From contig CALSNU010000002.1 of the NCBI GenBank assembly GCA_943787795.1, positions 608,001 through 672,000 on the forward strand: 64,000 nucleotides of DNA, written 5' to 3'. Position numbers and translations under genes: made by a program. The DNA is from an uncultured bacterium. GTDB lineage: Bacteria; Planctomycetota; UBA1135; GCA-002686595. Below, one piece after another: positions 10,656 through 52,836 of this stretch (positions are counted from its first letter, which is position 1; each line of letters opens with the position of its first letter). The notes under the pieces were generated by a model that was not told the DNA's origin, did no database searches, and was given only the letters and a program-made list of their open reading frames with translations.

Positions 10656-11315
10656 TCACTCAGCTTGCCAGCCGAAGAGCCCGCCGTGCTTGGCCGCCCT
10701 GTGGCAGCGGATGCAGCTCTCCATCGCCCCCGCTCCTGTGACACGGCCGGCGGGGTCCACGGTGCCGAAGGCCCAGCCGTCCATCGTGTCGGGGGTGCCC
10801 TCGGGCAGGCGGAGCATGACGAAGAGGCCGCGAGAGGCGCCGGTCCGGTAGGTGAGCCCGTCGCGCTCGGCGAAGGGGATGTAGCCGTGGCTTGCGGCCA
10901 GCTCCCAGCCCGGGGTCGAGTGGGGGGAGGGCGCGTCCTCTCCCGCGTGGAGCACGGGGGTGAAGGCCTCCTTTATGAGCACGGTGAAGAGCGGGAGCTC
11001 CACCTCCTCCTCGGTGCCCAGCTTCATGTAAGGCCCGCCTTGGTTCGAGCGGAGCGCGTAGATCTTTGATCCGTGGCCGTCCTCGGCTTCCACCGTGGAG
11101 TGCAGCGCCCGGGCGGCCGGGGGCATCATGCAGAGGAACGGCGACCAGTTGAGGTGGGGCCCCACCACCGGTAACTCCGGGACCGAGCCCGCCGCGGCGC
11201 GGATCATCGCCTCGATGGCGCCGCTGGCACGCGCGGGCACGACCTCGTGCGCGCTGCACGCGCAGAGGAGGGCGAGCGCCGCGAGGCCGTGCGAGCGGCG
11301 GCGGGCGGGGCGCAC
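10656..11315 (-). CDS. Cytochrome P460 family c-type cytochrome (lipoprotein)
   Basis: GTG 1 nt after the upstream stop; lipobox LCAC; TVLIKE, GLFVM, DGWAF and C-terminal CIRCH in the order typical of the P460/c'-beta fold. Confidence 0.75.
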   Translation of the reverse strand: MRPARRRSHGLAALALLCACSAHEVVPARASGAIEAMIRAAAGSVPELPVVGPHLNWSPFLCMMPPAARALHSTVEAEDGHGSKIYALRSNQGGPYMKLGTEEEVELPLFTVLIKEAFTPVLHAGEDAPSPHSTPGWELAASHGYIPFAERDGLTYRTGASRGLFVMLRLPEGTPDTMDGWAFGTVDPAGRVTGAGAMESCIRCHRAAKHGGLFGWQAE

Positions 11316-11316
11316 G

Positions 11317-12618
11317 TCAGGCTCGCTCGAAGAACCAGACGGCGGGCGTGCGCTTCGTCGGAGGATCGAACACGTCGATCTTCTGCTGGAGCTCACTGCG
11401 CGCCTTGCGGGTGGCATCGAGGCGATCCTTGAACTCCCCGTAGACGCGATCGAAGGCGGCTTCCCTCTCCTCGTCCGTCCTCGCCTTCTCCTCCTCGGCC
11501 TTGAACTCCTTGTTGAAGGCCTTGGAGACCACATCCTCGGCGGCCGAGGCGGCCTCGTGCTCGACGCGCAGTCGGGCGAGCTCTGCGGTCTGAGCGTCGT
11601 CGAGCGTGGGCGCCTCGGCGCGCCAGCGGGAGTAGCCGCCGACGATCAGGTCCAGGTCCCCGTCCTTGTCCCAGTCCGCGACCTCGGGATAGAGCCCCTC
11701 GACGGGCCCTGTGGGCGACGTGGGGAGCTCCTCGCCGCGGACCTGGAGCAGGGTGCGGGGCGCCGCGAAGCTCGGGGCTCCGCGCGTTCCCTTGTTGATG
11801 AGCAGGTAGACGCCGGCGATGCCGTCGGACCCGCCGAAGGTCCCGTAGACGAGATCCAGGTCGCCGTCGGCGTCCCAGTCCACGAGGCGTGGCGCGGTCA
11901 TCTTGGCCTTGTCCTCGAGGGGGACTCCACCGGCCATCACGCGCACGTTCTTGCCCGTGAAGCGAGGTTCCGACGGGGACCCCTCGTTCATCTGGACGTA
12001 GAGATGGCCCTCCTCATAGCTCCCCTGGATGAGATCCATGTCTCCATCGCCGTCCCAGTCCATGGCGACGGCGGAGATGCCCCGGAGGTTCCTGGGCTTC
12101 CCGTCGGGCATGGAGCGCCCGGTCGTGAGGTGTTGGTGGATGTCGAAGTCGTAGTAGTACGACACGAGCACGGACTCACCGGCGCCATCGAGCAGGCGCT
12201 CAGGCTCCGCGAAGCCCGCCTCGCTCCCCCAGCTCACGTGGGGCGAGCCGTCGAAGGTGGCGGAGAGGTAGTCCAGCTGCCCGTCGGCGTTGAGGTCCAC
12301 GAACTGTGAACCCATGCCGATGCATCACCAGTTGTTGAAGCTCAGCTGCTTCCCGTCGGTGCGCTCCATCGGCTTCTCTGGTCCCATCCCGTCCGCCGTG
12401 CGCCGCGACCAGGTCACGCGCCCGCTCAACCCGCCGAGGACCAGGTCCTGGATCCCGTCCCCGTCCACGTCGAAAGCGGCGGGCGAGGGATACATCTTCT
12501 TGTGGCCCATCTCGGCATCGCCGGCCATGAACTGGACGGGCGCCTTGAAGAGGATGAGTCCGTCGTCGGCATCCCCGGAGGGCGCCAGGGCCGCGAGGGC
12601 CAGGAGGATGTGAGTCAT
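11317..12618 (-). CDS. Secreted FG-GAP beta-propeller protein with in-frame TGA (codon 98, 12327-12325); predicted selenoprotein (W-U-C motif), 433 aa
   Basis: ORFs 12325-12618 and 11317-12315 share one frame: AAC TGG TGA TGC ATC GGC ATG; signal peptide only on the first part; the second starts mid-blade; SECIS-like hairpin follows the TGA. Confidence 0.72.
12278..12324 (-). promoter_or_regulatory. Candidate bacterial SECIS hairpin
   Basis: After UGA: UGC-A-UCGGC-AU-GGGUUCAC-[AGUUC]-GUGGACCU-CAAC-GCCGA-CGG-GCA; 8-bp upper stem, 5-bp middle stem and 3-bp lower stem; 19 nt between UGA and loop, G at loop position 2. Confidence 0.68.
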
Positions 12619-50709: not shown

Positions 50710-51651
50710 CTACGGGCGCGGCGCGAGGCGGGCGCCTCCGCCGGGTTGGCGCCCGGCGAGGACATCGAGGGTCCCTGTGACCGCTGAGGCGCACAGCGCC
50801 GCGTAGGTCCGGCCCGTGAGGGCCGCCACGTGGGGCGTGACGATCACGCCGGGGTGCCGAAGCAGCGGATCACCGGCAGGGGGCGGCTCGGGGTCGAAGC
50901 CATCCACCGCGTAGACCGCGACGTGCTCGGCCTCGAGCGCCGAGAGCATGGCGTTCCGCTCGACCACGCCGGGCCTCGCCGTGTTGACGACGACGGCGCC
51001 CGAGGCGAGCAAGGCGAGCCGGTCCGTGTTCATGAGCCCGCGGGTCTCGTCGTCGAGGGCCACGTGGAGGCTGACCACCTCGGCGCCTGAGAGGGCGCGG
51101 TCGAGGTCCGCTTCGAAGCCGTGCACCTCCCGCGGGGAGCGGTTCCACGCCGTCACCTCGGCGCCCAGCGCGACCATGAGGGCGCGGGTCCGCTCGCCGA
51201 TGGCCCCGAGCCCGACCACGGTCACGCGCGAGCCGGCGAGGGACTCGCCGCTGAAGTGATCTCGGTCTCCCCAGCGACCCTCGCGGGCGGAGCGCGCGCT
51301 GGACACGACCTCCCGGCGGCCGGCGAGGGCCAGAGCCAGCGCGTGCTCGGAGACGGTCTCGGTCAGGGCGTTGGGGACGTGGACCACGGCGACCCCGCGG
51401 GCGGCGGCGGCGTCCCGGTCAACGTTGTCGAGGCCAACCCCCGCGCGGGTCACAACCCTGAGGGCGGGGCAGCGTGCGAGGAGCGCGTCGGTGACCTGAC
51501 CTCGGCCGCGGGTGACGATCCCCTCGATCCCGGCGAGCACGTCGTCGCCGACGGGCTCATCGGGCGCGTCGAGGGCGACGACCTCGGCGTCCGCATCCAG
51601 CGCGGCGCGGGCCGCGTGGTGCAGGGACTCGAGCAGGAGGACCTTGGGCAC
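50710..51651 (-). CDS. D-isomer-specific 2-hydroxyacid dehydrogenase
   Basis: GVGLDNVD, GLGAIG, NTAR, EP, TPHVA. Confidence 0.9.
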   Translation of the reverse strand: MPKVLLLESLHHAARAALDADAEVVALDAPDEPVGDDVLAGIEGIVTRGRGQVTDALLARCPALRVVTRAGVGLDNVDRDAAAARGVAVVHVPNALTETVSEHALALALAGRREVVSSARSAREGRWGDRDHFSGESLAGSRVTVVGLGAIGERTRALMVALGAEVTAWNRSPREVHGFEADLDRALSGAEVVSLHVALDDETRGLMNTDRLALLASGAVVVNTARPGVVERNAMLSALEAEHVAVYAVDGFDPEPPPAGDPLLRHPGVIVTPHVAALTGRTYAALCASAVTGTLDVLAGRQPGGGARLAPRP

Positions 51652-51666
51652 GGCGCGGCTCCCCCC

Positions 51667-52833
51667 TCAGACGGGGACGGTCCACTCCTCGAGGAGGTCC
51701 CGGCGCGGGCGAAAGCCCAGGCCGGGCTCGGTCGGGGCGTCGACGCCGCCGTCGGTCACGGCGGGCTCCACCTCCGGGAGCTGGCGCAGCAGCGGGTTGC
51801 CCCCGAGGGACACCTCGAGGATGCGCGCGGCGGGGCTCGCGAAGGCCACGTGGAGGCCGGCGAGGTACGAGACAGCCGAGCCCCAAAGGTGCGGTGCGAG
51901 CTCGACCTGGGCGGTCTCCGCCAGGGTGGCGACGCGCGTCGCCTCGGTGATGCCGCCCACCAGGGCGACATCGGGCTGGAGCACGTCGGCAGCGCGCAGG
52001 CGCAGCACGTCGGCGAAGTCGAAGCGGGTCGAGAGGCTCTCGCCGATGGCGATGGGCACATCCGTGGTGGCGCGCAGCTCGGCTGCGGCGACGTGGTCGT
52101 CCAGGGGCGTGGGCTCCTCGAACCAGCGCAGGTTGGCGCTCTCCACGAGGCGCATGAGCCGCTTGGCCTCGGGGAGGCTGCAGGTGCCGTGGGCGTCGAT
52201 CATCAGCTCGATATCGGGGCCCAGGGCCTCGCGGGCGGCGAGGATCCGGGCGGCGCTGGTCTCGACGCGCCGGTCCATGGCGCCCACTCGCATCTTCACG
52301 GCCCCGAAGCCGAGGTCCACGAAGCGCTGCAGCTCGGCGCCGATGCCGTCGGCGTCAGCCCACCCGCCGGAGGCGTAGGCGGGCAGCCGGTCGTGGCAGG
52401 CGCCGCCGAGCAGCTCCACCACGGGCACCCCGTGGGCCTTGCCCGCCAGGTCCCAGAGCGCCGTGTCGATGGCGCCGATGGCCGCGACCCGGGGGCCGCG
52501 GCGGGCCACGTCCGGGAAGCTGCGCCCGCGGGAGAGGGCGAGGTCGCCCCGGCTCCCGCAGTACATGCGCTCCCAGGCGCGGGTGATGTGGCGCGGGTCC
52601 TGGCCGATCAGCGCCGGCCCGAGCTCACGCTCCACGATGGTCACCAGGGAGGCGCAGTCCCCCGCGCTCCCCACGGCGGCCTTGGCCTCGCCGAAGCCCT
52701 CGGCCCCGTCCTTGGTGCGGACGGTGACGAGCACCGCGTCGAAGGTCCGCAGCCGCCCGAAGTCGGACGTGTGCTGCTTCTCCTCGGGGATAGGTGCCCG
52801 CAGCCAGCGGGCCTCGACGGCGGCGATTTGCAT
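51667..52833 (-). CDS. Mandelate racemase/MLE family enolase
   Basis: ALWDL, YASGG, KMR, DAH / EEP / GE ligands, PHLW, PGLG. Confidence 0.9.
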   Translation of the reverse strand: MQIAAVEARWLRAPIPEEKQHTSDFGRLRTFDAVLVTVRTKDGAEGFGEAKAAVGSAGDCASLVTIVERELGPALIGQDPRHITRAWERMYCGSRGDLALSRGRSFPDVARRGPRVAAIGAIDTALWDLAGKAHGVPVVELLGGACHDRLPAYASGGWADADGIGAELQRFVDLGFGAVKMRVGAMDRRVETSAARILAAREALGPDIELMIDAHGTCSLPEAKRLMRLVESANLRWFEEPTPLDDHVAAAELRATTDVPIAIGESLSTRFDFADVLRLRAADVLQPDVALVGGITEATRVATLAETAQVELAPHLWGSAVSYLAGLHVAFASPAARILEVSLGGNPLLRQLPEVEPAVTDGGVDAPTEPGLGFRPRRDLLEEWTVPV

Positions 52834-52836
52834 GGG

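Follow-up and report, generated by a model that had tools for sequence, protein, structure and literature searches.

The window, meaning the whole stretch of 64,000 nucleotides that was analysed, carries on its minus strand a frame of 433 codons whose translation is interrupted once, by a TGA at codon 98 (Table 1). The ORF listing holds both halves, one of 97 aa (12325-12618) and one of 332 aa (11317-12315). A sequence-only reading of this DNA had noticed that the two share one frame and are joined by W-*-C-I-G-M, and translation confirmed it. Around the codon the product would read NNW-U-CIGM, with TGC ATC GGC ATG lying directly 3' of the TGA, and the GC content of third codon positions was 0.92 upstream of the TGA vs 0.90 downstream. 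The signal peptide that had been assigned to the first part stood as far as a hydropathy heuristic reaches (best 8-mer mean of 3.14 for the window N-terminus), and a Met plus a hydrophobic stretch was found at the N-terminus of 95 of the 102 homologues examined.

The TGA at codon 98 is not an assembly error. The sequence-only reading had asked for the codon to be confirmed in raw reads; assembled contigs of three runs keep it unchanged. Contigs from two RNA-library runs (X15 and X16), which come from the study that may also have supplied the DNA, span it, which alone is no proof of transcription. A DNA run of another study (X3) yielded two contigs that cover it near their ends, with a flank of less than 31 letters on one side. 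The raw-read run X21 had no read over the site. Runs containing the stretch were mostly marine.

Table 1. Features of the propeller gene in the window, and thioredoxin-like motif sites elsewhere in the source genome (G000)
Feature	Position	Strand	Basis or remark
Whole gene, predicted exported five-bladed FG-GAP propeller	11317..12618	-	433 codons, TGA read as Sec
Probable signal peptide (about residues 1-17)	12568..12618	-	Hydropathy heuristic; pLDDT <50 for residues 1-19
Blade 1 DxDxDG loop, probable Ca site	12454..12471	-	Sequence, column conservation, Pfam FG-GAP_3
In-frame TGA, proposed Sec98	12325..12327	-	TGA at 131/133 homologous loci, Cys at the other 2; same codon in contigs from 3 runs
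Cys99, vicinal partner of proposed Sec98	12322..12324	-	Cys in 119/121 distinct TGA sites; Cys-Cys in 120/120 Cys-clade proteins
Bacterial SECIS-like hairpin	12284..12320	-	Fold and comparison across homologues
Hairpin upper stem, conserved	12310-12306 with 12300-12296	-	Five pairs
Hairpin loop AGUUC	12305-12301	-	5 nt
Blade 2 DxDxDG loop, overlapping 3' arm of hairpin	12280..12297	-	Pfam, column conservation
Blade 3 DxDxDG loop	12043..12060	-	Pfam, column conservation
Blade 4 DxDxDG loop	11863..11880	-	Pfam, column conservation
Blade 5 DxDxDG loop	11659..11676	-	Pfam, column conservation
Long helical hairpin, residues 341-417, before closing strand	11368..11598	-	DSSP on model
U-x-x-C / C-x-x-U sites	G000 C1:189924, C1:576892, C1:589883, C1:1014756, C2:496831, C4:534942, C4:789560, C6:69376, C6:70103, C7:99960, C8:38656		Crude screen

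Read through the TGA, the protein is modelled as a five-bladed FG-GAP propeller. AlphaFold2 (11 sequences) gave a pLDDT of 87.8 and a pTM of 0.82, and the best structural matches were five-bladed GH62/GH43 propellers (Z 18.8, rmsd 3.5 over 262 residues, 8-10% identity). Pfam FG-GAP_3 (PF13517) matched five stretches at 1.3e-19, over its cut-off, and the Pfam scan gave no GH match. Repeated DxDxDG motifs and the propeller fold are thus both present by Pfam, model and structural search, as in members of the FG-GAP/VCBS propellers, and the blade loops, judged by their motif, may bind calcium. Thioredoxin-fold oxidoreductases differ: here the fold is a propeller and the pair a vicinal U-C, with no thioredoxin fold bearing a CxxC-type motif. 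Known FG-GAP/VCBS propellers (integrin alpha heads, CRTAC1, ITFG2 and the fungal lectin PVL) share the DxDxDG blade loops and gave weak sequence and Foldseek matches, whereas the window protein has five DxDxDG blades, the U-C pair and a long helical hairpin, with Foldseek TM-scores of 0.27-0.40. No solved close relative was found, the best E being 9.5e-9 over 27 positions.

In the model U98-C99 precede the first (inner) strand of blade 2. If integrin blade topology applies, as we assume, the loop with the pair would lie on the face opposite the calcium loops, and the pair may stand at the mouth of the central channel. The helical hairpin is dispensable in part of the family: a count with a rough regular expression gave 20 sites at which it is shortened or missing. 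Four distant members among the metagenome loci (L148, L166, L179 and L194) have the same TGA site and no helical insert; their C-terminal tails resemble what we take to be secretion-signal or FlgD-like domains, and the motif of L194 is U-C-C.

Homologues were collected in two ways. A relatives search with the read-through protein gave a match in 23 of 41 genomes, the source genome included, and a profile search over the phylum found matches at 116 places in at least 85 of 401 genomes, a lower bound because only four candidates per genome were scored. Part of these matches, together with 13 close loci, made up the 133 loci compared (L008-L140); close relatives were mostly Planctomycetota MAGs. 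As had been anticipated, the homologues keep TGA or Cys at the codon-98 column: TGA in 131 and Cys in 2, with TAA, TAG or any other residue in none. Once duplicates were removed, 121 distinct TGA sites remained, the most distant sharing 23% identity with the query. The residue after U is Cys in 119 of these, Glu in one and Arg in one. Because the residue before U varies (W 91, G 18, S 5, Y 3, A 2, T 1, V 1), we name the motif U-C; this part of the W-U-C motif first described holds, and the invariant W, present in only 91 of 121 sites, does not. Among 92 sequences of less than 62% identity, U or C stands at position 98 in all 92 and Cys at position 99 in 90, and these two are the only invariant reactive residues besides the Asp and Gly of the blade motifs.

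Departures from the pair are few. Two paralogues, L031 (U-E) and L137 (U-R), keep the TGA and the hairpin behind it with Cys99 replaced, each beside a U-C copy in the same genome, and metagenome locus L180 keeps TGA and hairpin with U-A in place of U-C. The family is strongly expanded in genome G040, which has 20 matches at E <= 1e-15; seven of seven copies inspected there (L051, L032, L093-L096 and L118) share U-C and the hairpin region. At L099 and L100 the U-C propeller genes stand in tandem pairs. The source genome holds no paralogue of the family, its one other match being weak (105 bits) and devoid of U-C or C-C. Of 68 metagenome loci, 13 show TGA at the site and 2 show Cys-Cys; the loci were retrieved with generic blade patterns, so most of the rest are unrelated FG-GAP proteins. 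A profile search of 1.84 billion representatives likewise returned 2 full-length family members among its best 150 matches and 148 generic FG-GAP proteins.

A hairpin is expected behind a UGA that encodes Sec, and one was found, covarying across the homologues. Counted from the T of the TGA, nucleotides 18-22 pair with 28-32. Folded alone, the hairpin stood weakly above shuffled sequences (z -2.25 for 53 nt; -0.54, -1.11 and -1.20 for three longer windows), and it is the comparison across homologues, not single-sequence folding, that supports it. All five pairs are intact in 106 of the 121 distinct sites vs 3 of 122 control blades with the same motif in the same genes. In an alignment of 110 distinct rows, 97.3% of cells were paired, with 26 double-sided changes; none of 500 shuffles scored as high, a count that is no probability because kin are not independent, and slid controls reached 24-48%. 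The third base of a Pro/Ser codon tracks the Val/Ala codon three on, CCA or TCA going with GTG at 92 sites and CCG with GCG at 18, while CCA makes up 119 of the 1879 Pro codons elsewhere in family genes. With a loop of 5 nt that begins 19 nt past the UGA and has G at its second position (115 of 121 sites), the hairpin agrees with the bSECIS consensus in section 5 of PMC13188914, which has a loop of 3-9 nt, G in the first two loop positions and a distance of 16-37 nt past the UGA. All 121 sites also fall below the -7.5 kcal/mol of the SECIS model, a value that is uninformative because of the GC content here. Neither of the two genome-derived Cys forms retains the hairpin.

The Sec machinery that the sequence-only reading had singled out for checking (selA, selB, selC and selD) is present in the source genome, all four genes above curated cut-offs: selA at 457 bits (cut-off 268), selB at 328 (242), selD at 327 (125) and tRNA-Sec at 69 (47), with the anticodon loop CTTCAAA. 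Its selD has an in-frame TGA of its own, in C-A-G-U-A-A-K. Across the genomes of the phylum, a selA match was found in 83 of the 85 that bear the family vs 288 of 401 overall. One of the two exceptions, G377, is a complete genome with no selA, selB or tRNA-Sec over cut-off, and its copy is Cys-Cys with the hairpin absent. The other, G102, is a MAG (90% complete, 410 contigs) with the TGA form, no selA match and a marginal tRNA-Sec at 49 bits, which speaks against the link to Sec. The second genome-derived Cys form comes from G408, which nevertheless retains the Sec machinery.

Judged from sequence, the TGA at codon 98 is very probably decoded as Sec, and the frame is very probably one gene, not two. 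SelB with Sec-tRNA would bind the hairpin, beginning 14 nt past the UGA, and selenocysteine would enter at codon 98. The decoding is of the ordinary SelB/bSECIS kind: the gene resembles known bacterial selenoprotein genes in its in-frame UGA, short upper stem, G-U at loop positions 2-3 and loop 19 nt past the UGA, with SelA, SelB, SelD and tRNA-Sec present. The protein scaffold is not one listed for selenoproteins.

It is most improbable that the TGA is a true stop, leaving either a pseudogene or two coupled genes with a restart at the Met four codons on. This Met is retained in the subfamily of the window protein, and databases annotate it as a start; because all 120 of the best close-profile matches begin there, the gene is split in annotation, as had been predicted of gene callers. 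However, other subfamilies lack a Met at this place (CTSST, CVGFG, CIASS), the stop codon is invariably TGA, the hairpin is under selection and uninterrupted Cys-Cys orthologues exist, while the second piece would lack the signal peptide and one blade. The ATG within TGATG was also considered as a coupled start and rejected: the frame that starts from it is a different one, about 40 codons long, and the ATG is absent in the U-E and U-R members. A reading of the TGA as Trp, Cys or Gly, through an altered code or leaky read-through, is scarcely credible. Nothing specific speaks for such decoding, and TGA still terminates the window gene and 56 of the 121 family frames; the site aligns to Cys, and the hairpin and the co-occurrence with selA are specific to Sec. 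Even taken together, the readings other than Sec are very unlikely.

The databases also hold a large clade of Cys-Cys (IYCC) proteins, in which both Cys are present in 120 of 120. It includes named cultured species, with P0415 from Lacipirellula parvula and P0414 from Allorhodopirellula heiligendammensis. These orthologues have the same architecture as the window protein but differ in having Cys for Sec, an invariant His pair (blade 1 in 118 of 120, blade 4 in 120 of 120) and, in 15 of 120, a DsbD-alpha-like tail. They are annotated as FG-GAP/VCBS repeat proteins only, and the papers searched held no description of their function. A FastTree tree was built from 99 rows after masking of the U column. 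It places the Cys forms at two points among the Sec forms, with the IYCC clade as sister to a Sec clade; the tree is unrooted and so mute on the direction of change between Sec and Cys.

As a whole explanation we propose, with a probability of roughly 0.55, an exported Sec propeller whose vicinal Se-S redox pair is recharged through DsbD. The product would be exported and fold as a calcium-stabilised five-bladed FG-GAP propeller that presents Sec98-Cys99 in the loop ahead of the inner strand of blade 2. The pair would alternate between a selenolate/thiol state and a vicinal selenylsulfide. Attack on an oxidised substrate in the propeller mouth would come from the selenolate, and Cys99 would resolve the intermediate. 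A DsbD-alpha domain or a TlpA-like thioredoxin, as the fusions suggest, would then return the pair to its reduced state, the electrons coming from the DsbD pathway.

The first reading had left the role of the pair between redox chemistry and metal binding, and fusions to DsbD-alpha and TlpA-like domains favour redox. Locus L017 encodes a propeller, DsbD_N and a second U-propeller; L113 encodes a propeller with DsbD_N, and the two lie in separate parts of the tree. In L062 a ResA/TlpA-like domain with its own W-U-G-P-C is fused ahead of the propeller, this partner being the only part with a thioredoxin fold. A DsbD-alpha-like motif ends 15 of the 120 Cys-clade proteins, which are kin and may represent one event, and it was found in none of 148 generic FG-GAP proteins. 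In an Atlas cluster of 56 similar propeller proteins, 57% of the members carry DsbD_N, which we count as a lead. The DsbD of the source genome has a C-terminal thioredoxin-like motif that reads U-V-V-C.

Several observations weigh against redox. The fusions amount to 3 proteins among 121 TGA sites, mostly outside the NW-U-CIGM subfamily of the window protein, and the DsbD-alpha motif occurs in none of the 120 closest database fragments. Cys99 is absent from the three U-E, U-R and U-A members, and the alternation of His, Met and Cys at equivalent blade positions would also fit a metal site. Complex prediction for the P0124 propeller with its DsbD-alpha-like domain scored 0.07 (mark 0.32), gave no verdict and counts for neither side. 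No conserved redox neighbourhood was seen in 356 flanking ORF segments, mostly from flanks of 1.5 kb, and nothing in them is conserved beyond the genus.

Two neighbours were recorded in their own right. The next gene in the window (10656-11315, minus strand) begins at or just past the propeller stop codon. Its product is a probable lipoprotein with a single C-x-x-C-H, and its match to cytochrome P460 is weak (E 0.002, under cut-off); the two genes keep this order in three relatives from within the genus. At L046 and L061 a nickel superoxide dismutase gene adjoins the propeller gene on the opposite strand.

Sec98-Cys99 might instead be ligands of a soft metal (Cu(I), Hg, Ag, Zn or Ni) bound at the mouth of the propeller, the protein serving in the periplasm as chelator, chaperone or metalloenzyme, with DsbD merely keeping the ligands reduced. 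We regard this as a serious but doubtful alternative. The invariant His residues in blades 1 and 4 of the Cys clade would suit a metal site, as would the occurrence of His, Met or Cys at positions 43, 102, 180 and 240, at least once in 88 of 92 sequences. Catalogued vicinal CU/UC families, namely SaoL, SaoC, SaoB, HgcA, MbdU, KCU-star, ferredoxin-thioredoxin reductase (CU) and CopZ-family (2Fe-2S)-binding form 1 (GxUC), include the metal handlers SaoL, HgcA, MbdU and the CopZ-family form (PMC13188914, Table 1). Nevertheless, the family as a whole shares no conserved third ligand, Tyr43 and Gly180 standing in the window protein itself, and no metal-resistance neighbourhood recurs.

We consider it unlikely that the Sec is a catalytic nucleophile or covalent capture site, as in a hydrolase, transferase or covalent lectin or adhesin, set in a five-bladed active-site pocket. 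The glycoside hydrolases of families GH62, GH43 and GH32, which supplied the best fold match, are alike in the general geometry of the propeller (Z up to 18.8). Lectins and integrins are among the FG-GAP relatives, and polar residues specific to subfamilies (His, Ser, Arg, Gln) are conserved. However, identity to the hydrolases is 5-14%, a shared fold shows no function and no acid or base is conserved apart from the blade Asp residues. A nucleophile or capture site would also leave the strict second Cys and the DsbD and TlpA fusions unexplained.

Other selenoprotein candidates occur in the source genome. Its DsbD (L142; G000:C2, minus strand, TGA at 479457) has two DsbD-alpha-like domains and a membrane domain, with a hairpin behind the TGA in the C-terminal motif N-F-T-G-H-T-U-V-V-C, and is a candidate Sec-containing DsbD; in the literature found, no description of such a protein went beyond a review. 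A further candidate selenoprotein (L141:1405-3030; G000:C6, TGA at 581711) is exported and has DsbD_N followed by a TGA in S-G-Y-I-U-I-C-M, a hairpin behind it, at least 300 further open codons and no NCBIfam match. A crude screen of the genome for other TGAs in frame yielded 71 rows, clear false positives among them, and about eleven U-x-x-C or C-x-x-U sites (Table 1), whose contexts we take to be thioredoxin-like, with families named from their motifs. Together these sites suggest a large selenoproteome. The sole other row in the window, a TGA at 51669 (50710-52836, minus strand), was rejected as a junction of two ordinary genes, presumably enolase-superfamily-like and dehydrogenase-like. 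We advance only tentatively the possibility that the vicinal Sec-Cys propeller is the terminal reductase of an almost wholly selenium-based envelope electron chain in Planctomycetota (Sec-DsbD, Sec-TlpA proteins and Sec-propeller), expanded to many paralogues with different substrate pockets.

Mammalian thioredoxin reductase ends in a C-terminal Cys-Sec, and the window family is like such vicinal selenoproteins in having Sec and Cys adjacent. It differs in the order U-C, which a single family has in Table 1 of PMC13188914, and in its scaffold, an exported beta-propeller with no NCBIfam match. That 2026 catalogue comprises 119 prokaryotic selenoprotein families, and its Table 1 contains no FG-GAP, VCBS or propeller family name or domain identifier. 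NCBIfam assigned no family to P0002, its two halves or three Cys forms. Term searches in the main text and four supplementary files of PMC12013277 gave no match to the propeller family, and the main text of PMC4807772 does not mention FG-GAP or VCBS, though its selenoprotein candidate table may bear on novelty. A full-text literature search found no paper on the family; subscription journals and bioRxiv supplements lay mostly outside its scope, so absence from print is not proven.

The Sec propeller would add a new fold class to the bacterial selenoproteome, in which thioredoxin-like and metalloenzyme folds dominate and no propeller is named among the 119 catalogued families (PMC13188914). The family is common in the phylum, and many 'VCBS repeat' database entries are truncated because its genes are cut in two. 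Because Cys-Cys orthologues occur in cultured planctomycetes, in part as fusions with DsbD-alpha, the function can be tested with ordinary proteins. Adhesion and calcium binding are what this scaffold is known for, and the findings suggest that it may carry out redox or metal chemistry outside the cytoplasm. If the tentative reading of a selenium-based electron chain is true, the Sec-Cys propeller would be a terminal reductase and represent a new class of cell-envelope selenoenzyme.
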